Positions 4,645-48,134 of a stretch of 64,000 bases of DNA are shown here, in pieces. The stretch spans positions 35,595-99,594 of the forward strand of contig CAWVRN010000015.1 in the NCBI GenBank assembly GCA_963932905.1, given 5' to 3'. Under the pieces are notes generated by a model. That model saw only the letters and a program-made list of their open reading frames with translations. It ran no database searches and was not told the DNA's origin. The stretch comes from an uncultured Bdellovibrio sp. Lineage in GTDB: Bacteria; Bdellovibrionota; Bdellovibrionia; Bdellovibrionales; Bdellovibrionaceae. Each line of letters begins with the position of its first letter. Within the stretch, counting starts at the first letter, position 1. The translations under genes and the position numbers were made by a program.

Positions 4645-5391
4645 TTTATATTAAAAACAGTTCGTTATTGGCACATTTACTAGATTTATTACTCCGAAAG
4701 TAAATTTGCCTATCCCTCGGACATATCATATAAACTTTGATCTTGGGCGATACTTGCTGGGCAAAGCGCGCCAGGAGGTGACTTTGAAATACACCCACAC
4801 CTATCAGCAGCCAGCAAATACGTCTTAGAATAGTAATCAATTAAATTAGTTTATTGAATAATTTTTTCATTTATCTATCGAAAATAAACCACTAATACAC
4901 AAGCCATAGCGAAAAATTGGACTAAAGCCGATAGACTGATGGCTGTCATTCGCCTAACATATTTTTTGTTTATATTATAACTCAACAACCCTTACCTTAT
5001 GGTGAACTATGGCTCTAACAGATGCATACCTGATTACAACAAAAAATCTTGAATCTTTTCTAAACGCGATTGTCGCAGCAAGAGCACCAGATAAATTTAC
5101 CCAAAAATTCTTAGAGTCTTTAGAGTTTAAGAGTACCAATGACCGTCTTTTCATTAAGCTCTTAAGGTCACTTGGTTTCCTAGATGGAAACGGTACACCA
5201 ACACAACGCTATCATGACTTTCTCGATCAAACTCAATCCAAAACAGTAATGGCGGAAGCAGTCAAAGAGGCTTACAGTGACCTATTTAATGTGAAGAAAG
5301 ACGCCAATACATTGAGCGCTCAAGATGTAAAAGGGAAACTGAGGACACTTACTCAAGGAAAGAAATCTGATGATGTCTACAATTGGATGGC

Positions 5392-6688
5392 TGTCCGTCC
5401 TGACACATAGGTTACATTTTATACCGGACACATAGTTTACACTTTTCTAATCTAGGAGGGATTCCAATGGGTTGGAAGGAGTGTACAAAAATGGATGAGA
5501 AGTTAAAATTTATAGCAAGGTATCTTGAAGGTGAAAAAATAGCCCCATTGTGTAAAGAATTTGGTATCACCAGACCAACAGCTTACAAGCTGATTGATCG
5601 TTACAAGATGATGGGTCAATGTGCCTTGGTCGAACAAAAAAGAACACCGCATAGGTATGCGCATGCTTTACCAGTTCAAGTTGAAGCTTTGATTTTAGAT
5701 TTAAAACGAGAATACCCTGATTGGGGTGCGCCAAAAATCAGAGAAAAAATAATTAAAAAATATCCCGATGTTAAAACACCTGCAAAAAGTACCATACACG
5801 CAATCCTTGATCGCCACGGACTTGTTAAACACAGACTAGGTCGAAGAAGATTTAAAGTGACTGGTACACCACTAGAACATGTTACCGAGCCCAATCAGCT
5901 GTGGTGTGCGGATTACAAGGGTGAATTTATGTTGGGTAATCGACAGTATTGTTATCCACTAACAATAACGGATTATGCTTCAAGATATTTAATTAAGTGC
6001 GATGCTTTATCATCAACCAGAGAAGAATTTGCATTTGAAGTTTTTACGAGAGCATTTAAAGAATTTGGAATACCTGATTCTTTACGAACTGATAATGGAA
6101 ATCCTTTTGCAAATGGTCAGTCATTTTATAATTTAACAAAACTATCTGTCTGGTGGATGCGACATGGAATAAATTTAGAACGAATAAACCCCGGTCACCC
6201 TGAAGAAAATGGTCGTCATGAAAGAATGCATTTAACTTTAAAACTCGCAACAACAAGACCGCCAAGACCAACACTTGTTTCACAGCAAGAAGCATTCGAT
6301 CATTTTCAAAATGTTTTTAATAATGAAAGACCACATGAAGGAATAAAAAATAAATATCCTTCAGAAGTTTATAAAAAATCCGATAAAGAATATAAGAAAT
6401 TAGAACCATTATTTTACCCAATGCATGATCAGACAATCACGGTCACTCAGTGTGGAAGAATTTGCACCAAGACGCTGAAGGTATCTTTAAGCAGATCTTT
6501 TGCAGGTCAACAAGTTGGAATAAAAGAAATGGAAGATGGCCTCTGGGTCGTCAGTTTTATGGATTATGATCTAGGTTACTTCGATGAACGAGGTTCTAGA
6601 GTTGAACCAGTGGATGATCCTTTTGGATTTGAAAAAGTGTAAAGGATGTCTCCGGTATAAAGTGTAAAGTATCTATCCGGTATGGACC
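5392..6688 (+). mobile_element. IS481-family insertion sequence (~1297 bp)
   Basis: Imperfect terminal inverted repeats: TGTCCGTCCTGACACATAGGTTACATTTTATACCGGACACATAGTTTACAC versus the reverse complement of the right end GTGTAAAGGATGTCTCCGGTATAAAGTGTAAAGTATCTATCCGGTATGGACC. GGC direct repeat at 5389-5391 and 6689-6691. Confidence 0.88.
5467..6642 (+). CDS. IS481-family DDE transposase
   Basis: N-terminal HTH (LCKEFGITRPTAYK); rve core WCADYKG, RTDNGNPF, ENGRHERMH; RBS AGGAGG upstream. Confidence 0.92.
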   Translation: MGWKECTKMDEKLKFIARYLEGEKIAPLCKEFGITRPTAYKLIDRYKMMGQCALVEQKRTPHRYAHALPVQVEALILDLKREYPDWGAPKIREKIIKKYPDVKTPAKSTIHAILDRHGLVKHRLGRRRFKVTGTPLEHVTEPNQLWCADYKGEFMLGNRQYCYPLTITDYASRYLIKCDALSSTREEFAFEVFTRAFKEFGIPDSLRTDNGNPFANGQSFYNLTKLSVWWMRHGINLERINPGHPEENGRHERMHLTLKLATTRPPRPTLVSQQEAFDHFQNVFNNERPHEGIKNKYPSEVYKKSDKEYKKLEPLFYPMHDQTITVTQCGRICTKTLKVSLSRSFAGQQVGIKEMEDGLWVVSFMDYDLGYFDERGSRVEPVDDPFGFEKV

Positions 6689-6942
6689 GGCAAATACTTT
6701 CAATGCTCTATGTTCTTGGGCCGATTTTTCAACGAAGAAAACAACAACTCCTCTGCCAAACGACGAAGACTCCAGTCCACCGATCGACATTAAAAATGAC
6801 ATGGATGAAAAAAAGAATGCCTTACCTAAGCCTCAAAAACTTGATCTTCATTATAATATTCAGATTCATTTGCCAGAGACCAGAGATACAGCAGTATATG
6901 ATGCAATCTTTCAGAGCTTAAAAAAGCATATGGTTTAGTCCG

Positions 6943-7527
6943 ATGAAAAATTCTATATACGACTTCGTCTTTAAAGGTCTTCTAACAGAAAATGCACTCG
7001 ATAAAACTGACCGAATTCCGAAACAGGCATATTCGGCTTTCGTCGAAATGAGCACTGTTGATAAACTTCCATTTGAACTATTGGACGACAGTTTCTCAAG
7101 TGCAGGCAAAAAAATGGCGGCAGTCTATGTCGCCTTATTCTCTTTTGAAAATTCGGTACGAAAATTCGTTTCAGATTTACTTCTAGAAAAAGTCGGCGAG
7201 AATTGGTGGGTAACTTGTGTTCAACAAAATATGAAGCAAAAAGCAGAATCTCGTCTAGAGGAAGAAAAAAAGATTTTATGGCATGCTCCGAGAGGAGATG
7301 AACCGATAAATTTTCTAGATTTTGGTGACTTAGCAAAGATTATGACCAGCAACGAAAACTGGGCAAGATTTGAGCCGTACATACGAGACCAAGAATGGGC
7401 AAAAAATCTTCTCACCTCTCTTGAAAGATCAAGAAACGTAATTATGCATAGCGGATCACTTGGAGAGAGAGATATAGAGAGAATTGGAACTCTTATGGAA
7501 GACTGGTTGCAACAGATAGGTTCATAG
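6943..7527 (+). CDS. Swt1-like HEPN domain protein (putative RNase effector)
   Basis: LFSFENSVRKFV, GENWW, FLDFGDL and an Rx4H motif RNVIMH; starts 4 bp after the DUF5343-like stop. Confidence 0.75.
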   Translation: MKNSIYDFVFKGLLTENALDKTDRIPKQAYSAFVEMSTVDKLPFELLDDSFSSAGKKMAAVYVALFSFENSVRKFVSDLLLEKVGENWWVTCVQQNMKQKAESRLEEEKKILWHAPRGDEPINFLDFGDLAKIMTSNENWARFEPYIRDQEWAKNLLTSLERSRNVIMHSGSLGERDIERIGTLMEDWLQQIGS

Positions 7528-7615
7528 CATCAAAAACTGGAATACCACGGAACCCAATATACTTCACCAAGAGGAGTATTATCTAATTATTTAGAACCAT
7601 TCCAGGTTCCAAGAA

Positions 7616-7716
7616 TGGTGGAGGCGCCGGGAATGGACTCGCACCATCCTGGCGCTCGGGCCTGCGGCCTGGCTGCGCCATCCAAAAAGGACGTCATGTC
7701 CTTTTTGTGAACCCGG
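7616..7716 (-). repeat. att-like copy of the tmRNA 3' end with a 73-bp insertion in the T-loop
   Basis: 7616-7634 TGGTGGAGGCGCCGGGAAT and 7708-7716 TGAACCCGG match ssrA 20588-20615 exactly; 7635-7707 is the inserted sequence. Confidence 0.85.
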
Positions 7717-7753
7717 AGGACGATCTCAGAGTCTAATCGCGATGTATCTACAG

Positions 7754-7798
7754 TTTAAATAAAAAAACCAACCCGATGGGTTGGCTTTTTTATTTAAA
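7754..7798. terminator. Bidirectional intrinsic terminator
   Basis: TTTAAATAAAAAAACCAACCC-GAT-GGGTTGGCTTTTTTATTTAAA inverted repeat with A/T tails. Confidence 0.8.
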
Positions 7799-7885
7799 TG
7801 GTGGACTCCGAAGTGAGATGAACGAACTCCGATGGTCACCTATCAATATCAACTACACATTTAGCAGTATTACACTGCGATCCAC

Positions 7886-8665
7886 TTACTCTTCAAACTT
7901 TTTAAGCTTTCTTCTCAACACCGCCCACCATAGATCACCTTGATCAATAATTTCAATCTGAGTATTGTGCAAATGCCCATCTTCAACATCATTATTGGTC
8001 CAAGTTATCCGAATATGACAATAGTGAGATGGAACTAAAAAGTTATCGTTGCTTACAATTATGCATAAATCGTACGGAAGACCCGGCAACAGTCTGATGC
8101 TCTCTTGCTGGTTCCTCCTATGAAGAATCAATTCAAGTGGTTTGGACGGAGTCACCTTATTCGGCCCAACAATAGCGGTATCAAGGTAACAAAAATCAGC
8201 TCGATATTTATATCTACCTGGGATGATACAGCCGACTTGGAAGTCCCGATCTGTCTCCGACCAGTTCATTTCAAATGTTGTGAAGGGAATATGACCCGAC
8301 AACTTACCCGATCCAGCTGTCATTCCAACACACCAAATACGAGGAGACACCAATTTTACCCATCCTAAATTTTGAACTCTTAGGCGGTACCAGCTTTGGA
8401 TTTTTTTCAGTTCACTATTGCTGTTGTAGAACTTAACTCCATGAACGGCATCTCCGCTATCATGGCTAAAAGATACTTCCAGCTTCGGTCTCAAAAAAAT
8501 AAATCTTGCAGCGATTGGAATAAGAAGCAGAAAAATTCCTGAAAAACCCGTATTCCAGATATTAGGTGCTTCCCAAGGATCTACTGCAAAAGCAACAGAT
8601 GCACTGCTCATCAACAAGAAGATTATGCAAGTTCTGAAAAAAATCGTTCTATATTCTGGGCGCAT
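7886..8665 (-). CDS. Hypothetical membrane-anchored protein
   Basis: 259-aa ORF with two N-terminal hydrophobic segments followed by RPKLEV; overlaps the upstream ORF by 17 bp. Confidence 0.65.
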   Translation of the reverse strand: MRPEYRTIFFRTCIIFLLMSSASVAFAVDPWEAPNIWNTGFSGIFLLLIPIAARFIFLRPKLEVSFSHDSGDAVHGVKFYNSNSELKKIQSWYRLRVQNLGWVKLVSPRIWCVGMTAGSGKLSGHIPFTTFEMNWSETDRDFQVGCIIPGRYKYRADFCYLDTAIVGPNKVTPSKPLELILHRRNQQESIRLLPGLPYDLCIIVSNDNFLVPSHYCHIRITWTNNDVEDGHLHNTQIEIIDQGDLWWAVLRRKLKKFEE

Positions 8666-8942
8666 ATATCGTCACCGGAACCAAATAAGATCCAAAGTCC
8701 GCCGCATCTTGGGGCTCTCCAAGAGTATAGAAAAGTCGATTCAAATCACAAAGTCTTTCTAATTCGGGGTGAGCCATGCGAGCCAATACAACTCTTGAGA
8801 TAATCTCCCTCGTTATATAGTCACCGGCAGATATCTTGAGCAATTCCTTGGCTACCACCGGGTTATTGAATCCTTGAGCTTTAAGAAAACCATTTGATAC
8901 TTCCAAAGAATTTTCAGGCTGGATAGGCGAATACTTTATCAT
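8649..8942 (-). CDS. Small hypothetical protein coupled to the S8 protease gene
   Basis: 97-aa ORF with ATGA overlap on the protease stop codon. Confidence 0.55.
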   Translation of the reverse strand: MIKYSPIQPENSLEVSNGFLKAQGFNNPVVAKELLKISAGDYITREIISRVVLARMAHPELERLCDLNRLFYTLGEPQDAADFGSYLVPVTIYAPRI

Positions 8943-11176
8943 CGGTTTAGTCCCTGCTGAATTTCGATTGCAACCGGTTGCATGATCTCGAGCTGAGTTC
9001 GATACTTCTGTGCAATCTTATTGTAGAGATTCGGCTCCTTCGGCGCATGGACGGTAATGACCAGCGAATATGGAATAGACTTCGCCGAAGTTGCTTTCGA
9101 GGCTCCGTCTCTAGCCACATAGTGGATATCAAAAACAGGATCATTGAAGTTCGCGCCCTGTTTTCTGACTGAATTGTGCAACACGGGCTCCCACTTGTGA
9201 GCATCATTTCTCAAATCGCTCTCGGAAGGGAATAGCTTCGCGCTACTAAAAAACGGCTGCGTAACATCCAAATTATTTATGTCAGGTCTAAATGTGATAA
9301 CTAGGCCACTGTTAGTATAATTCGATGGCTCTTGGGAGTTTATCTCGCACGAAAAGCAAAATGTGGCTTTCACGGTTACCATTCCCGCAAGACCCGAGAT
9401 CATAGGGATTCTAGCACGAACATATTTCGACGGCTCCAAAGTTCCCTGATAAATTATTTTTGCCGTAGAATCATCGGATGTTAGAAATGTTTCAACGTCA
9501 TTCGATATGCGCCCCCAACCAACATCTGCCACCGGATGGTTTCCGTTATCGGTATGATGAATAAGCAAAGTTTTACATCCTAACGGTATCAATCTGTTTC
9601 CTAAAGTTGATCTCAATCCCGAAGAAACTCTTAAAGCAAGCGGCGAAGAAAAGCTTGTACCCAGTTCTCCTTGCGCCTTTGGAGAAATTCTTGAATCAAC
9701 AACAAAAAATGGTTCCTTCTCACAACCCCCAAAAGCAATTAAATCTGGCTTAATAAAACCAGGTGCTCGACCTGGTCCGATTGAGCTGTAGTCGGCTCGT
9801 CGCCACTGCCCAGGAGAAGTCGAATCAGATGCGCCCACCGCCAATCCATTTACACAGTCTGACGGCACCTGGATTCTCGCATTTCCCGAATCGCGATCCA
9901 AGTCGCCATCATTGCCAACTGCAAATGAAGCCAATGTTTTGCCATTACTTAAAAGTTGATCGAATGTTGCGGTCCATACATGAACATCATCATCTTCAAT
10001 TGGCAGATGTGGCCCAAGACTAAGATTTATAAAGTCGTATTCCTTCTGCTTTAGTACCGACGTTACTCGATCAAGAACATCAAACAAATCCTCATCAACG
10101 TCTAACTGTTGATCATAAACTTTATAGTGATCAACAGTCGAAAAGGGGGCTTGCACTGGCTTACCTGATTCTATGGGGCCAAATAAGAAAGCAGAGGTAA
10201 CAGCCTCACCGTGCGACAAATCCTCCTCATCAGGCTCGCCGTGTCCAACCAAGTCCTTGTAGTTTACCCAAGGAAGTAAATGTGAATTTTCCGGAAGCCC
10301 ACCATCAAATATAGCAGTTCTAATCGAAAGATCCGATGCCGCCACTTTAGGTAGTTCATACTCAACTTGCTTCTTTGCTCTTCTTCGAGTTTTTCTAACT
10401 CCAACCATTGGCATCCGTCGTATAACTCGCAGAAATGCAAACTTCTCCAATAGAGCAATTTCTTTCTTCGTAGCCTCTACTGGTAAAAAGCAAAGTCCTT
10501 GCGCGAAAATTCTTCTATCGATATCAACATCGACCTGAACCTTCTTTGCGTAATGCACAAATGAATCAAGTATAAATGAGTCTTCTTTTGCATCTGAACA
10601 ATGAATCGCCACCTCATAGAGTTTTTCATTTGAATGAGCCTCTTTAGATTTTTTAACTCTCTCGCCCGGATAAAATGGATGAATATCTTCAATTTTTCTA
10701 AAATCTTCTAACCACTTGATATCAGTCTCATCCATCGTAGAAAGATCAACTTCACCATCTCGCATAAAAATAATGTTATTTGCCCAGTTTTCAAAATTCG
10801 TTTTTTTCCCTGCAATAAAAAGTGTAGTTGTCAGATAAGAGTCTTTAACTTTTTTCTGAGTGACCTTATCGGGCGAGATTTTTGCTGGTCGGCTACCGAC
10901 AGATCGAAGATCATACGCCCTAAGCAATGCCTCCGGGAAGTAGCTCTTTGATAAATAACTCGGATGGATTGTCACCGGAGTAACTACCTGACCTTCGGGA
11001 CACGCAAGCTCTGGCAACTGAAGCAAAGAACCCACGGTTTCTTCAAGAGGAGTTGATAGCCGCAAAATAGCATCTTCGATAGAATAAGGATGAGACTTTG
11101 TTGGCTTTATTTTAGGAGGCTCGATGGATGCGGTAAGCCTCTCGCCAAATCCAAATAGAAAGTTCTTATTTGCCAT
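8939..11176 (-). CDS. ietS: S8 subtilisin-like serine protease (IetS-type)
   Basis: Catalytic triad AIFDGG / SHGEAV / GTSFSSP; oxyanion region AVGNDG; KPDLIAFGG; lies directly downstream of an AAA ATPase; no signal peptide. Confidence 0.85.
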   Translation of the reverse strand: MANKNFLFGFGERLTASIEPPKIKPTKSHPYSIEDAILRLSTPLEETVGSLLQLPELACPEGQVVTPVTIHPSYLSKSYFPEALLRAYDLRSVGSRPAKISPDKVTQKKVKDSYLTTTLFIAGKKTNFENWANNIIFMRDGEVDLSTMDETDIKWLEDFRKIEDIHPFYPGERVKKSKEAHSNEKLYEVAIHCSDAKEDSFILDSFVHYAKKVQVDVDIDRRIFAQGLCFLPVEATKKEIALLEKFAFLRVIRRMPMVGVRKTRRRAKKQVEYELPKVAASDLSIRTAIFDGGLPENSHLLPWVNYKDLVGHGEPDEEDLSHGEAVTSAFLFGPIESGKPVQAPFSTVDHYKVYDQQLDVDEDLFDVLDRVTSVLKQKEYDFINLSLGPHLPIEDDDVHVWTATFDQLLSNGKTLASFAVGNDGDLDRDSGNARIQVPSDCVNGLAVGASDSTSPGQWRRADYSSIGPGRAPGFIKPDLIAFGGCEKEPFFVVDSRISPKAQGELGTSFSSPLALRVSSGLRSTLGNRLIPLGCKTLLIHHTDNGNHPVADVGWGRISNDVETFLTSDDSTAKIIYQGTLEPSKYVRARIPMISGLAGMVTVKATFCFSCEINSQEPSNYTNSGLVITFRPDINNLDVTQPFFSSAKLFPSESDLRNDAHKWEPVLHNSVRKQGANFNDPVFDIHYVARDGASKATSAKSIPYSLVITVHAPKEPNLYNKIAQKYRTQLEIMQPVAIEIQQGLNR

Positions 11177-11196
11177 TTACGATCTCCGTTCTCAAG

Positions 11197-12309
11197 CTAA
11201 GCCTCTGCTCCCGAGCCAGCCTTTTTTCTAATGGTGTCCCGACTTACTCCGGTCAATTCACTAATTTTTCGCTGAGAGGCATGACCGCTTTTATAAAGTG
11301 AATCCGCTATATTCATCCGATCTTCGTGAGAGATTCTGTTCATAGCTAGGGCGATATAACTTTCAACCGCTGAGTCAAAGTTTCCATTTCCTAGTATCGC
11401 AGTTTTTTTAAGATTTTTTATCTCTCTAATAATTTCAGAGTGCGACTGGTCCTTAAATAAAAGTGTCAGAACAGACAACAGGTCGGGACCAATTTGTACT
11501 CGTCCAGACAATTCCGCCTTGATAATATCAGTAACCTGACCTTCAGTTGGGCGAGGAAAGCGAATAATGCGATCAAAGCGTCGCCATACTGCTGGATCTA
11601 AAAGTTCGTCGTGATTCGTTGCTGCTATAATAAGATTATCCGATGGCCACGCATCTAACTCTTGGAGGAGAACTGTTACAAGTCGTTTCAATTCACCAAC
11701 CTCAGCAGAATCATCTCTTTTTTTTGCTATCGAATCCAACTCATCTAAAAAAAGAACGCACGTCGAACTTTTTGCAAAATCGAAAACATTTCGGATATTA
11801 CTTCCTGTGCGCCCTAAGAAACTGCTCATGACTGCTGACAAATCAAGAGTCAACAACGGTAGCTTCAGGTCTCGCGCAAGTATCTTAGCAGATAAGCTCT
11901 TGCCTACTCCGGGTGGGCCGACAAATAGCACTGCTCTAGTCGCTTCTGCTCCAGCCAACAGTAATTCTTTTAAGCGACTTCGTTCTGCGACAATTTCGTT
12001 AAGTTCATTTTGTATTCGATCTAAGAGAATAGGCTCATTATCAATTATCGGATTTTGATCCACCTTCAAAAGGCTTAATCGAGTATCCCTATCTACCGGC
12101 ATTGAATCTATCTCATTAGATCGAACCACCGATGAACGCTTAGGTAGCTGATTTACAATGTCCGCAAGTTCTTCCGCCGCATCTGGATCCCATTTTTGAA
12201 TCTTTCTAATGAGGCGACGAATATAGAACTCTAGGTCCTTACGAGACCCAGTTAGGGATAGCCTTGCCAGCTGGACTATTTCATTTGAAATTTTCTTTAT
12301 CTCTTCCAC
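11197..12309 (-). CDS. ietA: AAA+ ATPase (IetA-type) with C-terminal HTH
   Basis: GPPGVGKS, LFLDELD, AATNH..LDPAVWRRFD; C-terminal SQRKISELTGVSRDTIRK. Confidence 0.85.
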   Translation of the reverse strand: MEEIKKISNEIVQLARLSLTGSRKDLEFYIRRLIRKIQKWDPDAAEELADIVNQLPKRSSVVRSNEIDSMPVDRDTRLSLLKVDQNPIIDNEPILLDRIQNELNEIVAERSRLKELLLAGAEATRAVLFVGPPGVGKSLSAKILARDLKLPLLTLDLSAVMSSFLGRTGSNIRNVFDFAKSSTCVLFLDELDSIAKKRDDSAEVGELKRLVTVLLQELDAWPSDNLIIAATNHDELLDPAVWRRFDRIIRFPRPTEGQVTDIIKAELSGRVQIGPDLLSVLTLLFKDQSHSEIIREIKNLKKTAILGNGNFDSAVESYIALAMNRISHEDRMNIADSLYKSGHASQRKISELTGVSRDTIRKKAGSGAEA

Positions 12310-12478
12310 TTAGATCCTATATTTATGTATTTTCAATAAGTTATAGTATCATTTTAACTGGACTAGATCAATACATTTTTAAACTAACTAGTCCATTGTT
12401 GCATTTTGAGGCGATTTAACCTGTCCTCCGCTTTTGTAGTGAAAAATATGGCCAACCATGTGCGACATAGCAACTCGA

Positions 12479-14269
12479 TTAAAAATTGATCTCAAGATCG
12501 ACAGCGATAGGGTCAATGGGAGCTGATGAATTTTGGATCATGGACTGCGACATATCGATGGCACCCGTGACCATCCATTTGCTGTTGTTCTGATTGAGAT
12601 TCTTTTTTTCGGTTCGAGATTGCTGCACACAAACCAAACCATTAAGAAATAATTTACGGAGAGCCGCATTTGCCAATGCTGAATCTCTCTCGAATAGCTC
12701 CGTCAGATTTTCAAAATGTTTTCTTATGCTAAAAATTGTCACAAGAACCTTATCCGACTCCGCAACCTGCAAAAGACGAATCTGCTCTTCAGTGTAACGA
12801 AGTTCTATTTCTCGCTCACCGAGATTTACTTTTACCAGTTCTGCCGAATCAGCCCCTTGTTCGATAAAGTTCATCAAATTGCGAACCTTGCGCTGAATTT
12901 CATTTCGCCTTTGCTGAAGCTGGCTTATTTCAACCGGCACTGATCTTAATCGCTGATTGATTTTTTTATTGATAATGCTTACTGCAAGTTGAATGTTCTG
13001 CTCGCTTAGAAGAATCTCCTTTACCTTCTCGACAACAAATTTCTCGAGCTTCAGGCGATGAATAAGGAATTTATTCTTACAAACCTCTTTGCTCTTTCTA
13101 TGATGTGTAAAGCAGCCATAGTAACCACCGCGACGACCAGTGATTTGCAGCATATTGGATCCACATTCAGAACATTTTAAGATTCCCGCCAACAGCGATT
13201 CAGATTTTGATCCAATCACTTTTGATGCTCGTGCGTATGAAAATGAATCGGTGCCTTCCTCTTTCTTACGGTATTCTCTTATCTCGATAGTTTTTTGAAC
13301 CTTTACCCAAGTATCAATATCAATGATTATCAAATCTTGCCGAATGTCTTTACCCTGATGATGCTTGACCCAAAGGTTTCGGGGCTGCTGTCGCTTTTCG
13401 TATTTATCCGTATCAGGATTCAGAATCCTTGTTGTCTTACCCCATTCCCATATACCGATGTACTTTTCGCGTGTCAGAATTTTCCGAACTGTGGTCTGAC
13501 TCCAATTACAGACGCGGCCAGTTCGAGTTCTCCCTCTTCGCGGAGAAGGGATATTTCGTTTATTTAAAAGTTTAGCCGTAGATGAAAAACCTAAGCCCTT
13601 TAAGCGCAGTTCAAAAATAAGTCTGACAACCGCCGCTTCTTCCAAATTTACTTCCAACTTATAATGCGACGGAATTTCAATTCCACCTTTTGGACGCGTC
13701 CTCGTTGGTATGCTGTTGTAGCCGTAACAAACATCGCCTGAACTAAAGCCATCAAGAACTCTAATCTCCTGACCTCGCTTAGTTCGATGGGCGAGATCCT
13801 CATTCGCCATCTGGTTCGCCATGCCCTTGAATGTGAAGTTGATCATTGAGTTAGGCTGCTCGGAGGAAATGCCGTCGCAAATGCTTATAAGTTCGATGTT
13901 GTTAAACTTCAGCAGCTTGTGCAAATTGACCTGAGTTCCAAGATCGCGGGTAAGTCTTGAAAGATCATCTACAATTACCGCATCGAACTTCTTTTGCCGA
14001 ATACCATTGAGAAGGGCTTCATAGCCAATGCGGCTTCCAACTTTGCCCGACACTGCTTCATCCTTGAAAATACACCCATCCATGATTTGAATTTGGTATT
14101 CGGCCAACGGAAATTTCGTGAAGATCACTTGGTTATTTTCAACCCGATATTGGATACGTCGAATTTGATCATCAGCCGATACTGGAGATTGGTTGTCTGA
14201 ACTGAACCGTGCATATAATCCAACACGGCAGATGTTTTTTGATTTTAGTATTGTCTGGCGCGTATTCAT
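12479..14269 (-). CDS. Large serine recombinase (integrase)
   Basis: YARFSS catalytic motif, DDLSRLTR, recombinase domain, zinc ribbon LLAGILKCSECG, coiled coil. Confidence 0.93.
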   Translation of the reverse strand: MNTRQTILKSKNICRVGLYARFSSDNQSPVSADDQIRRIQYRVENNQVIFTKFPLAEYQIQIMDGCIFKDEAVSGKVGSRIGYEALLNGIRQKKFDAVIVDDLSRLTRDLGTQVNLHKLLKFNNIELISICDGISSEQPNSMINFTFKGMANQMANEDLAHRTKRGQEIRVLDGFSSGDVCYGYNSIPTRTRPKGGIEIPSHYKLEVNLEEAAVVRLIFELRLKGLGFSSTAKLLNKRNIPSPRRGRTRTGRVCNWSQTTVRKILTREKYIGIWEWGKTTRILNPDTDKYEKRQQPRNLWVKHHQGKDIRQDLIIIDIDTWVKVQKTIEIREYRKKEEGTDSFSYARASKVIGSKSESLLAGILKCSECGSNMLQITGRRGGYYGCFTHHRKSKEVCKNKFLIHRLKLEKFVVEKVKEILLSEQNIQLAVSIINKKINQRLRSVPVEISQLQQRRNEIQRKVRNLMNFIEQGADSAELVKVNLGEREIELRYTEEQIRLLQVAESDKVLVTIFSIRKHFENLTELFERDSALANAALRKLFLNGLVCVQQSRTEKKNLNQNNSKWMVTGAIDMSQSMIQNSSAPIDPIAVDLEINF

Positions 14270-14604
14270 TAAACTGCAATCTCCTTTCTAATGATCTCGT
14301 CGCAAATGAGATCAAGTATTGTGTTGAGTCCTGCGTGAGTCTCATCAAGTTGCATGATATTCAGCTCACCGTTCGCATAAGGTCCCGTCTTCGCAATGGC
14401 CTTATACTTGTTTCTGCGCCATATATTGTGACAGCCACCACAGCGGCCTTCACGACGACCTCCCCCTTTGGGTGGAAATTGCAAAATGGGGAATGTCTGC
14501 TTGCAATCACGGCAAGTTCTTAGTTCGGCACACGCCCTCGTCTTATCAACGGGTTCAACGTGTTGGCACGAGACCTGAAAATCTTTTTCATCCTGTTGGT
14601 TCAA
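14269..14604 (-). CDS. Small Cys-rich (CxxC...CxxC) protein coupled to the recombinase
   Basis: CRDC and CGGC motifs; its stop overlaps the recombinase ATG (TAATG); start codon uncertain. Confidence 0.5.
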   Translation of the reverse strand: MNQQDEKDFQVSCQHVEPVDKTRACAELRTCRDCKQTFPILQFPPKGGGRREGRCGGCHNIWRRNKYKAIAKTGPYANGELNIMQLDETHAGLNTILDLICDEIIRKEIAV

Positions 14605-14783
14605 TGTTCATATACTACCTCCCCTCTGTCAGATTACGTCTTGGCAGTACCGCCCCTGTCCGACCCTTTTCCTGGAGGTGACTCTACCGATGCAGATTCC
14701 TGCCTCTAGCAAGAGTCACCTCTTAAAAGAAGGATAGCTACGCTATCCTTAAAGAGATCCCTACGGGACTCTTTTCTCCCACC

Positions 14784-15668
14784 TTAATGTTGAGAAAAAC
14801 CTCTAATGCCCTGGGTGTAAATCTCATTTAGGGTTGGCTGCATTTCTTCAAGGTCATAGAAATTACCGAACTTCTTTGCGAAATTGCCTTTATATTTTTT
14901 ATTGAGTTTCTTGCGAGTATGCCAGTAACCCCAACGCAGACATTTCTGTTCAAATTCAAAATAGTTTCGCCATACTTGAGGTCTGGCATTTTTTCTCGGT
15001 TCGATAAATCTAAAGTGGTGGGATGTACAACCAGCGAAGGGCTCGATCTCAAGAACTTGAGATAGGTTCTCTACACGCATTTCATCTTCAGGTTCCCAAG
15101 TAATTTCAATTCGAGAGCACGGGTAGTTGATAGTTTGCTGATTTCTCTTTGCCTTAGCTTTCATCTCTTTCGTCTTGTCGTAAATTTTAATTTCAATTTT
15201 CTTACCGAGTTTACCAACATAAGCAGTCTCACCTCTGCCTTCGACACCAACGTGCTTGATGTATCGGCGAAAGCCGAAGTCCAAGCCCATATACAAAGAA
15301 TAAAAGTCACAGGGAAAAGTTAGAGCAACATCGATATATTTGATATTGGCTCTCAGGCCGGGTCGGCCAAGAACAGACTCTATTGCATCAAGACAATCCC
15401 ATATAGTATTGAAGCGAGAAGGATTCAGACTAAATCTTAATCCAGCATCAAAAGCATCTGCGAAAAACAGAGTTGCTCCGTGCCCCTTCGGCAAGTCTTT
15501 GATGACGTACCCGTCACCTTTATTTGCCGATTGGGCACGTCCAATAAGGGCTTCTCGATCAAGAGGATAGTTGGTAGTAAAGACAAGTTTATCAAGAGAC
15601 GCGACAACCGCAGACTCGTGAACTCGTCCCGCGGCGACCTCGTCGAAAGAAGGAGTGAAGCTAATCAT
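14784..15668 (-). CDS. Rep_trans-like rolling-circle replication initiator/relaxase
   Basis: Motif order LDKLVFT, LNPSRF, YIDVALTF, GETAYVG, KIYDKTKE, RIEI matches Rep_trans/CRI-type initiators. Confidence 0.7.
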   Translation of the reverse strand: MISFTPSFDEVAAGRVHESAVVASLDKLVFTTNYPLDREALIGRAQSANKGDGYVIKDLPKGHGATLFFADAFDAGLRFSLNPSRFNTIWDCLDAIESVLGRPGLRANIKYIDVALTFPCDFYSLYMGLDFGFRRYIKHVGVEGRGETAYVGKLGKKIEIKIYDKTKEMKAKAKRNQQTINYPCSRIEITWEPEDEMRVENLSQVLEIEPFAGCTSHHFRFIEPRKNARPQVWRNYFEFEQKCLRWGYWHTRKKLNKKYKGNFAKKFGNFYDLEEMQPTLNEIYTQGIRGFSQH

Positions 15669-15921
15669 GCCAAACCCCCTCTGCGAGTGGGTCTCGGCGG
15701 AATTGATTCCGATAGGAAGTTACGACGGTATCCCCCATGTTATTGGGAGATGATTCGCCGTCTAAGTGTTGAAGTAAATCCCGTCTTAGGTCGTTCAGGT
15801 GTGTTAAAAGTTGCCGCCGGAAAAGGGGCAGCTTCCTGTCGTCGAAGTATATCGACTCTGCCAGATTTAGTATGGCATTGATCCGTTTATTTATTATTTG
15901 ATTTGTTTTTTTCTTTTTCAT
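15661..15921 (-). CDS. Small hypothetical protein upstream of rep
   Basis: 86-aa ORF with RBS GGAGG; overlaps the rep start. Confidence 0.6.
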   Translation of the reverse strand: MKKKKTNQIINKRINAILNLAESIYFDDRKLPLFRRQLLTHLNDLRRDLLQHLDGESSPNNMGDTVVTSYRNQFRRDPLAEGVWHD

Positions 15922-15989
15922 ATCGCCTCCATTGAGGCGAAGTTCTGCTTTAAATTTGTGAGATTTGCGATAAGTACTTAGGTAAGTGC

Positions 15990-16655
15990 TTATTTACTCC
16001 TACGTTTCCTTTTGAAATCCAAATCTAAGAGGGGGGCTTGTTCAATAAGTTTCTTTGCCATCTGTAAATTATTTGAAACAGTCTTGTGATGCCTGCTTGG
16101 CTTATTCGTCTTCGTTATTTCATAAAATTTAGGAAGGCGTTTTGCGATTTCATATGTAGATGCTTTGGGATTTTTTAAATGAACTTTGTAAGTAGCAATA
16201 ATCGTATCTAGTCGTTTTTTATCAAGCCGATTTCTTTTAACTGATTTCGCAACCTTCACTTTCATCTGTTCTTTTAATCCAAATACTTCTTTCTGAAAAT
16301 CAGCATAGTCTTTAGGCAAAAGATTTTTCATATCAAAGGCAACAAGAAGATATCGTGGTTCGTTTGGATTATCCGGTTGAAGCGTAGAAATGTCTTCGGC
16401 AATCACATTTTCACGCGTAATACTATTGTAGCTAAAAATGCCAAAGTTGGAAATTTTCTCAAAAAAGATCTCAGGAAGAATATCTGGATCCTCATCACGC
16501 CAATCTGGATAACTTCGCAATCCCCATCGTTTGTGAAGCTCTAGTAAGGTCAGCTCACCGGCAGTGTATTTGTCGTACATATTTTGATACTCAGAATTTA
16601 GCCTGAGAAACTGCCATGTATAGTATAAAACGTCTTCATCAAAATCTGGGTGCAT
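15990..16655 (-). CDS. Putative mobile-element transcriptional activator (DUF6499-like N-terminus, C-terminal HTH-like)
   Basis: TWQFLRLNSEYQ resembles the WEFLRRNxxY motif; C-terminal STYEIAKRL..KTVSNNL. Confidence 0.5.
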   Translation of the reverse strand: MHPDFDEDVLYYTWQFLRLNSEYQNMYDKYTAGELTLLELHKRWGLRSYPDWRDEDPDILPEIFFEKISNFGIFSYNSITRENVIAEDISTLQPDNPNEPRYLLVAFDMKNLLPKDYADFQKEVFGLKEQMKVKVAKSVKRNRLDKKRLDTIIATYKVHLKNPKASTYEIAKRLPKFYEITKTNKPSRHHKTVSNNLQMAKKLIEQAPLLDLDFKRKRRSK

Positions 16656-16795
16656 ATCAAATTGATTTTACTTTTTATGTCTCAGAAATGCAATGTCGGT
16701 GAACCGGTGTTCTTTTCTCTTACCCTACAAAATTTTATGAGAGCCTAGAGTGGCCTTTATTTATTAAGGACAATCCTAAAAAAACACACCGGGGG

Positions 16796-17410
16796 TCATA
16801 ACACAGCATCGACTCGAACTTGAGTTTGCTCGGTGAAGTGCAGATACATCGCGGTGATCGTAGGCGACGAGTGACCTAGGATTTTTTGAACTTCGGCGAG
16901 ATTGAACCCATTGTTCAGCAGAAAAGTAGCAAAGTGATGCCGAAGACTGTGATAGTTGATCGACCGTTCGATGTTGCACCTGCATCGCCAGTAAGTGAAC
17001 CGACGAGCAACGGCATGACGGGTGAAGGGCTCTCCATTTCGATTTAGGAAAAGGAAGGAATCTGATGTCACGGACTGGTTCATCAGTCCATCTTTCAGCC
17101 GAATGAGTTCGTCAATGGCGGCGCGTCCGCGTTTGCCGAGAGGAATTATCCGAAGCTTACGACCTTTACCGACCACCTTGACCGAGTTCTCTGCGATGTC
17201 GCCGATCTTGATATTGGCAGCTTCTGAAACTCGCAGACCAGTCAGCGAACCAATTAAAATTAGGAAGTAGTCGTTGATGAAATGAAGGTGTCTTCCGGTT
17301 CGCAGAGATTGCTCCATCGACGGTTTGATTGTCTTGAGCATGAGTTTAAGTTCGGAATCTGAGAGGATCTTGTCCTCGGTCAGCGCATAATTCTTGGGAT
17401 TTCGGTTCAT
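16796..17410 (-). CDS. Short tyrosine recombinase (catalytic domain only, Xer/resolvase-like)
   Basis: TGLRVSE, GKGRK, HSLRH, LGHSS, TAMY; start ATG at 17410 after AGGAGG. Confidence 0.9.
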   Translation of the reverse strand: MNRNPKNYALTEDKILSDSELKLMLKTIKPSMEQSLRTGRHLHFINDYFLILIGSLTGLRVSEAANIKIGDIAENSVKVVGKGRKLRIIPLGKRGRAAIDELIRLKDGLMNQSVTSDSFLFLNRNGEPFTRHAVARRFTYWRCRCNIERSINYHSLRHHFATFLLNNGFNLAEVQKILGHSSPTITAMYLHFTEQTQVRVDAVL

Positions 17411-18140
17411 TTTAGTCCTCCTGATCACCGTAGTTATCGGATCACAAGACTATCTTCCCAACTGATAACGGGTTCATCACCAGGCAAGATCGAACCGAAT
17501 TGATCGGCACTAGAACCATCACAGAAATCAAACGGTTATAAAGATAGTTACCAGAACAGAGATTTTGATAACTGGAATGAGATCAACCGATCAGCTTAGA
17601 GTTTTAGGGCCAGGCCACGGATTTACTACAATCTCCTCGGGAGCCCCCCATTTTGCACCGGTATTAATGGATTTAGTGGACGGGGCCGTCACCCAAAGAA
17701 GATACATCCAGTTTTCGATGGTACTTTTTGTACTGATTTTAGAAATCAATCACCGCAGAGACAAGGGCGGGAACTCGGAACTTTCTTGAGTGCTTTCAAC
17801 GTGTGGGCTAACTCCCTGACTTGCCATCTTTCTATCTAGAGGCATAACCAGGATTTTAAATACTTCTCTGGATCTATTATGCCTTGTTGATGTTTTTCCC
17901 GATCTCATTATTTGTCTATCTCTTTGGAATTACTTATCGATCAGTCTTTTCGGTTGGGCAGTATGCTCCTATCTTTTGTTACCTTTTTTTGTATTTTCTT
18001 GGACATTACGGGGACTCTCCCTTGGTAGTGTTGGCTTTTAAGTCTTTTCAGAACGTGCTATTTCAACGAATATTTAGGTCATTGCGGTAAGCTGCGGTGT
18101 TGCGGTGATCTGCGGTGGCATACACCTTTAATAGTTCTAT

Positions 18141-18662
18141 TTACTTTGCATCTGGCAATTTTGAACCAGTGTCTTTGAGCTGGCCAAGGCATTGACGAGG
18201 CTTTTCAATGCGTACAACTTTGCGACCTACTATCTCACCGTGAGTGAAAACCACGGCCTGCATATAGTCGAACTTCTTTTTAAGATCGTCAAAGCAGAGT
18301 CTGTATTTAGGGTGAACCTGTATTAAAAAATCTCCTTGCCCTTTAGAGCTATAGGCAAAGTGATAGTAGCCGTCATCGAAAATCTCATTCTTCAAATCAA
18401 CTGCATCGACATCAATTTGCATGATGTATCGCTGCCGCTTGCTTGAGTCGTTTTCGTAATCGGTTTTATCCTTTTTAAGAACATCCGAGTGAGGCAATTG
18501 CGGGAAATGTTGGTCTTTGACCATGCCCTCCCATTGCTTCCAAAGTTGGTGGTCGGCACGAGCCCCGCCAGGAGGAGACTCAATGGGTCCAAGATACTTC
18601 TTCTTGGCATTAGCGGCCATTGTTATAGAAAAGACTACTGCAATAATCATCATATGTTTCAT
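18141..18662 (-). CDS. Hypothetical secreted protein
   Basis: Signal-peptide-like MKHMMIIAVVFSITMAANA; RBS GGAG. Confidence 0.7.
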   Translation of the reverse strand: MKHMMIIAVVFSITMAANAKKKYLGPIESPPGGARADHQLWKQWEGMVKDQHFPQLPHSDVLKKDKTDYENDSSKRQRYIMQIDVDAVDLKNEIFDDGYYHFAYSSKGQGDFLIQVHPKYRLCFDDLKKKFDYMQAVVFTHGEIVGRKVVRIEKPRQCLGQLKDTGSKLPDAK

Positions 18663-18671
18663 AGGTTCTCC

Positions 18672-19013
18672 TTATCCCTTTCGTCTAAGTCTTCTAGCTG
18701 AAATTTCAAAAATGCCGGAGAAGCTAGGATCGGGCTCAGAATCAAAAAGTTCGGCCATTGAAATTTCCTTAGGTTCAACCCGACTATCTGATCCAGTAAG
18801 TAGCCACTCAAAGGAGCAGCCCAATGCCCGACATAGCCGTTGAACTGCAATGTGATCATTTGGTACAGAGCCAGCCAACCAATCGTTCAAAGTTGCGGGT
18901 GTCACATTTGCGATCTCGGCTGCTGATTTTTGCGAAAGTCCACGCTCTGCAAGAATTGATTTTAAATTCTTAGCTAACGGGCTTTGAATTTTCTTGCGAG
19001 CAGGTTTGGGCAC
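18672..19013 (-). CDS. XRE/Cro-CI family HTH repressor
   Basis: LAERGLSQKSAAEIANVTPATLNDW..LCRALGCSFEWLLTG. Confidence 0.88.
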   Translation of the reverse strand: MPKPARKKIQSPLAKNLKSILAERGLSQKSAAEIANVTPATLNDWLAGSVPNDHIAVQRLCRALGCSFEWLLTGSDSRVEPKEISMAELFDSEPDPSFSGIFEISARRLRRKG

Positions 19014-19154
19014 AGACGAACTCCTCCAGCCAAACCAATCGGCTCAAACAAAACCAGAGTTCAACTAAATCCGGTTCTGCTGATTGATTCGGTTCTTCTT
19101 ATTTTCTATGGAGTTGGTTCGATTGGCACGTAGTTGGACCAAAATGGACCGAAA

Positions 19155-19790
19155 CTAAGAGTCCCCATCTCGACGCGCAGGAATTGATTCATAGTAGGCC
19201 ATTATCTCCGCCCACAATTTTTGATAGTTTTCTAAATTGAGCCATGCTTCTGGATCTCCAACTGTACCAAATCCCGATGGGCTCTTTACCCTTTGTCCAT
19301 CAAGAATTTTGCGTGTTGACTCAAACTGTTCTCGACTCTTAGGTGCTGGGTACCGACCAAGCCAGTAAACATACTCGGTCATTACATCAAGCAATCTTCG
19401 CTGAGGATCTGTGACAACAAATCCTGCATCTTTTGCGATCTTATTTAGTTGATGAATTGGCTTTAGGTTCTCGCAATGGCCGTCCCGTTTAACGATACAC
19501 GCTTTTAGAAGTAGTTCGATAGCCAATCCAGCATTTAATCGAAAAATAGGAGGAAGAGCTGCGCCAAACGCAAAACCAGATCCAAGGCCTAATACTTCAG
19601 GGGACACATTTACCGGACTATCTTTTTCACACACATTACCTAGAAGAACTGCGGCTGCATTAAGGTCTGAAGCTCTATTTCGCCAATACACTCCAAATCG
19701 AATGTTGATGTCGTAGCGGTCCCACACTCTCTCGTATTCATAAGAGCAATCTAAATCTTCAGTTGGATGAAGCTTCTCGAATTTTTTCAT
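19155..19790 (-). CDS. HEPN-like domain protein
   Basis: GLAIELLLKA, HQLNKIA, WLGRYPAP; likely start MKKFEK at 19790 after AGGA. Confidence 0.55.
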   Translation of the reverse strand: MKKFEKLHPTEDLDCSYEYERVWDRYDINIRFGVYWRNRASDLNAAAVLLGNVCEKDSPVNVSPEVLGLGSGFAFGAALPPIFRLNAGLAIELLLKACIVKRDGHCENLKPIHQLNKIAKDAGFVVTDPQRRLLDVMTEYVYWLGRYPAPKSREQFESTRKILDGQRVKSPSGFGTVGDPEAWLNLENYQKLWAEIMAYYESIPARRDGDS

Positions 19791-19809
19791 ATTTTTAATT
19801 CCTACCGAC

Positions 19810-20367
19810 TTAGATTTTATCGAGCTTGGCTTTAAGGCTCGATTGTATAGGAGAATTGAAAAGAACGGAGACTTCCTCCCCTGACAGTTCCTCACTCTCA
19901 TATAGTTTTTCAGCGATCAATTTAATTGCCGGTTTAAATGGGGTAAGTGTTCTTAATACCCAGGAAAGCTTCCAATCGACATAGGCTCTGACTAGCGGAT
20001 TTTCAATGTCAGCAAGTGTTCCAGGATTATTGACGGATAATTTGACCGTTGCGTTTTTAAACGTTTCATCAAATTCCAACAAATCCTCGATTAGTTCAAT
20101 TGCGCCAACTAAGTCAGTATGACTGCGATATATAGTGTATCTGCCCGATATCAATACCTCGCCGACAAACCCTGCTAAAGAGATTCTGATTTCCCGAAGA
20201 GCTTCGTCAGGATTTGTTATTTCTCGTGCGGGCGGTTCTGTTGACATCACTCCACGGTATTTATCGGTTCCTTTTATCGAGATTCTTTTTATCTTTAAAC
20301 CATGAATAGTGGCCATAACGGCGTGAGCAGTCTCATGGTATGCAGTTTTCAACTTTTCATGATCCAC
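19810..20367 (-). CDS. Stand-alone M41/FtsH-like zinc metallopeptidase domain
   Basis: TAYHETAHAV (HExxH), SLAGFVGE, IAEKLYESEELSGEEV; probable GTG start at 20367 after AGAGG (track ORF extends to 20403). Confidence 0.7.
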   Translation of the reverse strand: MDHEKLKTAYHETAHAVMATIHGLKIKRISIKGTDKYRGVMSTEPPAREITNPDEALREIRISLAGFVGEVLISGRYTIYRSHTDLVGAIELIEDLLEFDETFKNATVKLSVNNPGTLADIENPLVRAYVDWKLSWVLRTLTPFKPAIKLIAEKLYESEELSGEEVSVLFNSPIQSSLKAKLDKI

Positions 20368-20587
20368 GCCGTAACCTCTTTGCTCCAATCGTCCCCATCC
20401 CATAAAAAAGCCCGAAGTCTGTGTTGTCTCAGCCCTTCGGGTTCAACGTTTTCGTCCCCAATTTCTATTTCTGGATTTGCCGCAAATCAACAGCGGCCAA
20501 GATCAACTATTTAAAATCCGTATCTAATTTTCAATTCCAAGTTCCCGAGAACTCACGGGGACGACCCGGGTTCTCAAACTCTGAAAT

Positions 20588-20940
20588 TGGTGGAGGCGCC
20601 GGGAATTGAACCCGGGTCCGCAAGAGTTCCACGAAAAGGCGCTACATACTTAGTCACTGTTTTTAGTTAGGCTATCGGACTTCCAACGACAAAATTCCAA
20701 TAGTCACCCCCGCAGTTTATTTAGGTCGGTGCCCTGTAGAGAACAGCACTCAACCGGTACGGCATTAATAACAGATCTTCAGCTCAACACCGTCGATTCA
20801 ACTGAGATCCGTGACAGAACTAAGCTGCCATTGCAACGTTTTCGTTAGCAAATAATAGTTTGCACCTTTTTAACGAGGTCCCTGTGCGCCCCGGTATGCT
20901 CCCTTTGCTTCACTTCCCACGTCGAAGCCATGTCGCCCCC
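20588..20940 (-). ncRNA. ssrA: tmRNA (tag reading frame ANENVAMAA*)
   Basis: 5' GGGGGCGACATGGCTTCGAC; 3' GGACCCGGGTTCAATTCCCGGCGCCTCCACCA; internal GCT AAC GAA AAC GTT GCA ATG GCA GCT TAG. Confidence 0.96.
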
Positions 20941-47973: not shown

Positions 47974-48071
47974 ATGCCGGGTCCCATACAATGGCTTTGA
48001 TGACGAACCCCGCTAGGTCCGGAAGGAAGCAACGGTACTCGTCGAACCATGTGATATGGGGTGCTCGGCAT
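47974..48071 (+). ncRNA. ffs: Signal recognition particle 4.5S RNA
   Basis: CCGCTAGGTCCGGAAGGAAGCAACGG domain IV inside a long hairpin; located upstream of dnaX. Confidence 0.92.
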
Positions 48072-48134
48072 TTTTATTTTCCAACGTAGCTGGGTTATAT
48101 CCTAAGGATATGTCCTAAAAAGAAAGACGCGCTA

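Follow-up and report, generated by a model that had tools for sequence, protein, structure and literature searches.

The tRNA-linked repeats (TLRs) of Escherichia coli have been known since 1978, with Egan & Landy 1978, Rudd 1999, and Bösl & Kersten 1991/1994 cited for them by Stenum et al. 2021 (PMC8144298). According to that paper, TLRs are located in operons of tRNA and rRNA genes, and the gene upstream ends in the same 18 to 19 bp as the TLR. It counts 22 TLRs at ten loci of E. coli K-12, gives them "no known function" and no established origin, and describes them as transcribed and processed RNAs, with the repeat proposed as an RNase E processing signal. The TLRs rrA, rrB, and rrF, located behind 5S rRNA between the terminators T1 and T2, are presented as read-through products that bind Hfq and CsrA via GGA motifs, two of which are in hairpin loops (PMC8144298).

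The site described here was found in a 64,000-nt stretch of DNA from an uncultured Bdellovibrio sp., referred to in full length as the window. With a probability of about 70%, it is a TLR attached to the tmRNA gene ssrA and a distant relative of the E. coli TLRs. A TLR is composed of a terminator, a spacer, a few bases of gene copy, a hairpin-rich core, and the last 18 to 19 nt of the gene, and as far as was searched, this is the first one seen behind a tmRNA gene in a Bdellovibrio-type bacterium. Like rrA, rrB, and rrF, the site lies behind a stable-RNA gene, has last 18 to 19 nt equal to the gene end and a terminator between gene and unit, and contains short hairpins, GNA triloops, and GGA loops. 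Unlike them, it has tmRNA as the host gene and comes from a Bdellovibrionota metagenome-assembled genome (MAG) rather than an enterobacterium; in further contrast to the rrn-type TLRs, a second terminator is not evident, and the unit is placed 12.9 kb from its gene through an intervening island. The layout is also that of RtT RNA (RF00391; rttR of tyrT and the serW units), and the T-arm of those E. coli units is split after TTCGA. However, the Rfam model misses the site, and the last hairpin, P5, is here a 5-bp AGGAT hairpin as opposed to the GCGAAGC or GCGC-GCA-GCGC mini-hairpin of E. coli.

Islander-type att fragments resemble the site in that the inserted DNA brought along the proximal copy, the ancestral gene end being the distal one; here, however, the unit is ∼185 bp with no integrase, the copy is broken by a conserved core, and that core also occurs at a 5S rRNA end. 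The original prediction had used an ordinary att duplication as its frame of comparison, which does not apply to a site of TLR architecture. The T-loop is reportedly, from work by Williams in 2002, a crossover sublocation of integration into tRNA genes. Integron attC sites share with the site imperfect palindromes, arrays at one entry point, and a single orientation, but no integron integrase was found near a related unit in a second genome (G008, below) or near 14 other loci, and the flanks are without R boxes, the consensus of which is GTTRRRY. The core resembles MITE, REP, and BIME elements where it forms part of a ∼230-bp element with TIRs in a Francisellaceae genome and where it is nested among hairpin repeats in GC-rich contigs, whereas in the window's genome, it is single-copy and gene-linked.

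Layout of the split ssrA end

On the minus strand, positions 7716-7616 read CCGGGTTCA, 73 nt, and ATTCCCGGCGCCTCCACCA, while the 3′ end of ssrA reads ...CCCGGGTTCAATTCCCGGCGCCTCCACCA. Since both pieces match the ssrA end, CCGGGTTCA plus ATTCCCGGCGCCTCCACCA constitutes the last 28 nt of ssrA, broken after TTCA in the T-loop. The split 28-nt copy with its 73-nt insert was therefore present as the original prediction had described it, and all four of the hairpins named there were located, at 7707-7641. A repeat search paired 7616-7637 with 20588-20609 at 95% identity, and the distal repeat is identical to the ssrA 3′ end at 19/19 positions. The split copy is on the ssrA strand and, because an island has been inserted between them, lies 12.9 kb behind ssrA in the window. 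The features are as follows.

20588..20940, minus: ssrA (tmRNA), tag peptide ANENVAMAA, found by ARAGORN and by Rfam (RF00023, 176.6 bits); its last 19 nt are repeated at 7616-7634
7761..7798, minus: T1 terminator of the unit, with A-tract, stem GCCAACCC/GGGTTGG, and T-run (sequence and terminator scan)
7717..7760, minus: spacer of 44 nt from T1 to the split copy; the spacers of the ssrA unit and of a tRNA-Met unit in genome G016 are weakly alike
7708..7716, minus: left half of the split copy, CCGGGTTCA, made up of the 5′ half of the ssrA T-stem and TTCA
7635..7707, minus: TLR core, 73 nt, with four hairpins, P2 to P5, supported by covariation; 66.9 bits with covariance model R1, in which the window core is itself included
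7707-7683, minus: hairpin P2, 10 bp, loop ATGAC
7680-7670, minus: hairpin P3, TGGC-GCA-GCCA, GCA triloop
7669-7659, minus: hairpin P4, GGCC-GCA-GGCC, GCA triloop; CGA separates P4 and P5
7655-7641, minus: hairpin P5, GCGCC-AGGAT-GGTGC, loop AGGAT
7640-7635, minus: core tail GAGTCC, after P5
7616..7634, minus: 19-nt copy of the ssrA 3′ end (ATT, 3′ half of the T-stem, acceptor strand, ACCA), the hallmark repeat of a TLR
7590..7615, minus: native post-ssrA flank with hairpin GGAACC/GGTTC (7610-7594), kept behind ssrA in two other genera

By sequence, T1 reads as a terminator on both strands, and the scan listed it on the plus strand. Behind the unit, the scan did not call the hairpin of the native flank, a conserved hairpin of 5 to 6 bp without a T-run. 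At other units (tRNA-Met, tRNA-Pro, and E. coli serW, tyrT, and rrnB), the equivalent left 9 to 13 nt match the local gene.

The core was found once in the window's genome (G000, a 4.55-Mb assembly), both by BLAST and with the covariance model. As DNA, the 101-nt stretch folds better than its shuffles (z = −3.17 for the sense and −4.22 for the antisense strand), and as RNA, z = −2.69 was obtained over 141 nt. Choosing a strand from folding energy was rejected, as both DNA strands fold equally well.

That the site is not a product of chance follows from a second genome of the same genus (G008, a Bdellovibrionaceae MAG), in which the unit is 88% identical to that of the window over 185 nt; its core differs only in P2, where the changes are compensatory. 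Contigs from four DNA sequencing runs of four studies (wastewater, sludge, and groundwater) match 7626-7829 at 85 to 99% and diverge on both sides. The stretch that they share amounts to the unit and ∼30 nt of the right end of the island, and the right-hand break of the contigs falls inside the 19-nt repeat, as in G008. No RNA run was found among the sequencing runs for the split-copy stretch.

The displaced gene end and the neighboring island

In two other genera of the family (G019 and G015), ssrA is followed by TTT(T/A)(T/C)GGAACCTGGAAATGGTTCTAAG, and the same type of flank stands behind the 19-nt copy at 7616 in the window. Because the native flank follows the 19-nt copy, 7635-20606 is inserted relative to the state in these genera; of the two gene ends, the distal 19-nt one is thus the old one, and the proximal one arrived with the unit. 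The functional ssrA gene ends today in the copy brought by the insert. The DNA between the gene and the unit is an island with the following features.

7799..20587, minus: island of 12.8 kb, exactly behind the CCACCA of ssrA, with ends TCCACCA at 20594-20588 and 7805-7799; not part of the unit
about 16796-17428, minus: tyrosine recombinase of ∼200 aa, catalytic domain only (Pfam, translation)
12479-14269: large serine recombinase, 596 aa (Pfam)
14784-15668: weak Rep_trans match (Pfam, 28 bits, below the cut-off of 29.6)
8939-12309: AAA ATPase and S8 subtilase pair
within 7799-20587: HTH protein and weak HEPN match

Behind the second TCCACCA, a strong terminator (7798-7761), the 44-nt spacer, and the split copy follow in that order. 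In G008, T1, the spacer, and the split copy come directly behind ssrA with no island; the repeat lies 94 nt behind the gene, and the last 10 nt of its 19-nt repeat are decayed. Since G008 has the unit without the island, terminator, spacer, and split copy form a unit that predates the island and does not depend on it.

On the chromosomal side of the repeat, 5009-7527 encodes a DUF5343 protein, an rve-type transposase with HTH domains (5467-6642), and a Swt1-like HEPN protein (6943-7527), and it looks like another mobile or defense patch. A 25-nt tandem pair is located on the same side at 6634-6683.

A family of cores with four covarying hairpins

A strict motif scan of 384 genomes of the order gave matches only in G000, G008, and G016. 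In a collection of species genomes, 74 loci were matched, of which 70 were chance matches in GC-rich coding DNA and 4 were true: G008, G016 (a Pseudobdellovibrionaceae MAG), a Steroidobacteraceae MAG, and a Francisellaceae MAG. With a refined motif, metagenome contigs yielded 65 loci with 68 matches, including 2 chance matches and 1 partial match. After removal of duplicates, 59 distinct cores were aligned with their flanks, and this alignment also formed the basis of the covariance model R1, which hence includes the window's own core. Rfam assigned no family to the site or to ten metagenome loci, and a phage collection gave no match to the core.

The four-hairpin structure was paired in 88.1% of cells across the 59 cores compared to 82.5% in shuffles, and the covariation score was 0.157 compared to 0.066, with 0/500 shuffles reaching as high, although these controls overstate independence because the cores are related. 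By hairpin, the proportion of paired cells was 94.9% for P2, 86.3% for P3, 96.0% for P4, and 98.9% for P5. The loop of P4 was GNA in 51/59 cores without being forced by the search pattern, and the triloops are on the tRNA-sense strand. Within the same set, the constancy of GNA in P3 and AGGAT in P5 proves nothing because the search patterns fixed both loops; both were also present in copies found by the covariance model alone. The predictions that homologues with covarying stems would exist and that the GNA loops would keep to one strand were thus borne out. G.T pairs outnumbered A.C pairs in the stems by 17 to 5.

GGA was present in the P5 loop of every collected member and also in the linker between P2 and P3, and the P2 loop carried it in 53/59 cores. 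In the window copy, GGA occurs in the P2-P3 linker and the P5 loop; the P2 loop reads ATGAC and lacks the motif.

Relation to the E. coli and Klebsiella repeats

When a metagenome core was compared by BLAST with plasmid records, a Klebsiella record was matched in which tRNA-Ser end fragments are separated by terminators and hairpin cores. The Klebsiella sequence was matched in 3367/5426 complete E. coli genomes. At E. coli serW, the match fell on four tandem units that are annotated by PGAP as "RtT sRNA" and score 45 to 46 bits with Rfam RtT, each composed of a terminator, a spacer, GGGGTTCGA, a core with GCA/GAA triloop hairpins ending in GAGTCA, and the last 18 nt of the tRNA. The enterobacterial look-alikes that the original prediction had mentioned could therefore be identified as E. 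coli and Klebsiella TLR or RtT units.

Searched with R1, the "rrB" core in the K-12 rrnB T1-T2 region scored 54.3 bits (E = 6e-13), the Klebsiella TLR 48.8 bits, the four serW RtT units 26.1 bits (E = 1.9e-5), and the tyrT/rttR units 16.5 to 17.3 bits (E = 5e-4 to 8e-4), and the matches to the E. coli and Klebsiella cores were collinear over the whole model. The Rfam RtT model RF00391, which has a gathering score of 45 bits, gave no match on 7500-7900 even at E up to 10 and, at its gathering score, none in the window, ten metagenome loci, and five Bdellovibrionota loci; because it misses the site, the link to E. coli rests on R1, which includes the window core. With this basis, the core was shown to be homologous to the E. 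coli TLR cores, namely rrnB rrB, serW RtT, and, weakly, tyrT rttR.

In E. coli rrnB, it is a copy of the 5S end that is split, 18 nt from its end, as GAGTAGG, core, and AACTGCCAGGCATCAAAT. It follows from this split that the constant feature is the distance from the gene end and not the T-loop. The rrnB T1-T2 terminator that contains this TLR is present in many cloning vectors. With the same four-hairpin core at tmRNA and tRNA genes of Bdellovibrionota, at tRNA-Ser in metagenomes, in a Steroidobacteraceae MAG, and in a Francisellaceae MITE, what had been an E. coli curiosity becomes a widespread family that is accessible to comparative genomics.

Position and copy number of the cores

GTTC(A/G) was found directly to the left of the core in 35/59 cases, 32 of them by rule; visual reading added the window, G008, and the Francisellaceae copy. 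A tRNA-Ser end is on the right in most of these T-loop cores, and all 35 share one orientation relative to the gene. The other 24 cores are nested in loops of unrelated GC-rich hairpin repeats. The insert does not always sit in the T-loop between TTC(A/G) and A, the position that the original prediction had proposed to check: 35/59 cores do so, the rrnB core splits a 5S end, and in one genome the core is carried within a MITE. A tRNA or tmRNA gene ended at most 150 nt upstream on the same strand in 18/65 oriented instances.

The genes that precede cores include those for tRNA-Ser, -Met, -Pro, and -Glu. Among 101 genomes sampled from the phylum, each at least 90% complete, a match at E ≤ 1e-4 was obtained in 14 genomes, representing 8 of 79 genera, and two of five inspected Bdellovibrionota loci proved to be a tRNA-Pro and a tRNA-Glu unit with the same layout as the ssrA unit. 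In G016, tRNA-Met is followed by a terminator, a spacer, GGCGGTTCA, a related core, and CGCCTCTCACTACCA, with the flanks matching its own T-arm and end. Counted with R1, the core is present once each in G000, G008, and the Steroidobacteraceae genome, 10 times in G016, where several copies are behind tRNA genes, and 68 times in the Francisellaceae MAG of 2 Mb (G385). In the latter, the core is the inner part of a ∼230-bp MITE (e.g., L160 1390-1620, L164, and L166), with ∼40-bp TIRs and TA flanks in 26/26 copies examined, and the copies inspected are intergenic and tight against gene ends.

Tandem arrays were seen in many metagenome contigs, with the newest-looking copy beside the gene. A mirror layout was also encountered, in which the intact tRNA-Ser or tRNA-Gln gene is preceded by a complete 5′ copy of itself that carries the core (L127, L149, and L142; L096; L107); this 5′ copy includes the promoter region, and its 3′ end is decayed. 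At L133 (about 1230-1420, minus strand), the spacer is native flank, and 28 nt are duplicated around "GGTTCGA + core," resembling a long target duplication. A "rescue duplication after lethal insertion" was considered and rejected as fitting L133 only, the spacers of G000, G008, L147, L118, and L131 carrying a foreign terminator.

Mobility genes near the cores

No integrase, transposase, or Rep family was found in 33 ORFs from the 3-kb flanks of 14 other loci, and no recombinase, transposase, or Rep was found in 4 re-called ORFs of L158, where a 2.7-kb insert carries a luciferase-like gene and a PIN/Phd pair. The co-occurrence with Rep_trans or particular recombinases that had been predicted was consequently not observed at these loci. 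A 408-aa ORF of L158 was dismissed as an antisense artifact of the luciferase-like gene. Genes for Y1 transposases were present in 4/5 core-bearing genomes compared to 6/14 controls. The idea of an IS200/IS605-type PATE or a RAYT/REP system was discarded, as the non-tRNA subfamily has no common target tetranucleotide.

Alternative explanations of the site

The original prediction took the split copy for an attachment site or replication terminus of the island, used by the Rep_trans-like protein or the recombinases. The proximity of the two, the presence of a tyrosine recombinase, a large serine recombinase, and a weak Rep_trans match in the island, and the contigs of the four DNA runs, in which the unit is accompanied by ∼30 nt from the right end of the island, would be in keeping with this. 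However, the split copy is not the att site of the island, which has its own TCCACCA repeat with the boundary 83 nt from the split copy; G008 carries the unit directly behind ssrA without an island, and related units occur at other genes without such genes nearby. The explanation is therefore very improbable, and on account of the TCCACCA repeat and the islandless G008 unit, no link could be made between the site and the island's Rep_trans match or either of its recombinases. The part of the prediction that stood is that DNA was inserted beside a displaced ssrA end, as the native flank behind the 19-nt copy indicates. It is scarcely credible that the site is instead the displaced att fragment of an old tmRNA-targeting island, later hit by chance by an unrelated insertion: islands do leave displaced 3′ fragments of tRNA and tmRNA genes, as described in the Islander paper, but the same core splits copies of many genes, at an equal distance from the end and in two phyla. 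A chance one-off insertion is impossible where the split recurs at many different genes. For the window, a supposed new recombination site is thus removed, and the repeat is set apart from the adjacent island.

A broader form of the original idea is that the core is a selfish, non-autonomous module that enters stable-RNA genes 18 to 19 nt from the end, either as a folded single strand or by a recombinase acting in trans, regenerating the gene end and piling up in arrays, with the RNA as a by-product. Several observations are consistent with this: the unit is inserted relative to related genera with the native gene end displaced, the newest-looking copy of an array is at the gene, disrupted copies occur both behind the gene and, as 5′ copies, before an intact one, and the orientation is single in 35/35 T-loop cases. 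The 68 copies in one 2-Mb genome, the nesting of cores in the loops of other hairpin repeats, the excess of G.T over A.C in the stems (17 versus 5) together with the one-stranded GNA triloops, and the 28-nt duplication at L133 point in the same direction. Raised coverage of E. coli tyrT-rttR in exonuclease-resistant DNA preparations, described in a preprint (10.1101/2024.07.17.603846), might also be cited in its favor, though its authors ascribe the signal to RNA/DNA hybrids and report that no circles were seen. Against it, the 33 ORFs from the 3-kb flanks of the 14 loci and the 4 ORFs of L158 included no recombinase, transposase, or Rep, only one copy of the core is present in each of G000, G008, and the Steroidobacteraceae genome, and in the 68-copy genome, it is the cargo of a TIR- and TA-flanked MITE and does not move alone. 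Furthermore, Y1 transposase genes were no more telling in core-bearing genomes than in controls (4/5 versus 6/14), and neither a circle junction nor a pair of empty and filled sites within one species was seen. On balance, this explanation was judged unlikely. Such an unlikely DNA-level scenario, in which a mobile module enters its fixed point, perhaps in folded single-stranded form, would account for the single orientation and the arrays as well as for the displacement of the native end. Any model of how TLRs originate has to accommodate the arrays, the displaced native end, and a break fixed at 18 to 19 nt from the end of the gene.

Possible role of the repeat

For the TLR behind ssrA, the role that appears most likely by analogy is that of an RNA module produced by read-through, with GGA in hairpin loops to which CsrA may bind. 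The unit would be, or would once have been, transcribed by read-through of T1 as in E. coli, and the 19-nt copy would provide the same 3′-processing signal as in the parent RNA, if the proposal in PMC8144298 extends to it. The core would then display GGA motifs for putative CsrA binding, in this copy in the P2-P3 linker and the P5 loop and in most family members in the P2 loop as well. A csrA gene was present in 5/5 core-bearing genomes, the window's genome among them, compared to 3/14 controls. Against such a role, the Francisellaceae MITE copies showed no orientation bias with respect to co-directional genes (10 same and 9 opposite), which does not favor a sense-RNA role there, and no RNA run was among the matches. 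Also against it, a CsrA-sponge predictor gave 19/22 E. coli TLRs a score of <0.01, and the phenotypes reported for rrA, rrB, and rrF were modest (PMC8144298). The GGA-free P2 loop of the window copy, the lack of an evident second terminator, and the failure of the Rfam RtT model to match the site count against it as well. The window copy may itself be silent because the island separates the unit from the ssrA promoter.

A more far-reaching and rather improbable proposal is that TLR cores represent one ancient cross-phylum module that enters stable-RNA genes (tRNA, tmRNA, and 5S rRNA) 18 to 19 nt from the RNA 3′ end by an end-measuring mechanism, restoring the gene, forming arrays beside it, and providing RNAs with GGA hairpins through which CsrA activity is coupled to stable-RNA transcription. 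As modes of entry, the 3′ end of the stable RNA itself might serve as primer or template, or the module might enter as a folded single strand. The length of 18 to 19 nt is also that of the retroviral tRNA primer site.

Further features of related loci

In the mirror layout at L107, the break is at the anticodon loop. In both layouts, a CGAACC box, the complement of GGTTCG, is located at the outer end of the unit. In the tRNA-Ser arrays at L118, L130, and L150, the main core alternates with a second type in which GGGGATAA, three GNA-triloop hairpins, and GAGTA follow one another, and this type is likewise followed by the last 18 nt of the tRNA. The window contains a small SRP RNA gene at 47975-48073 (Rfam, 60.7 bits), and an SRP RNA also adjoins the tRNA-Ser TLR in the metagenome locus L130.
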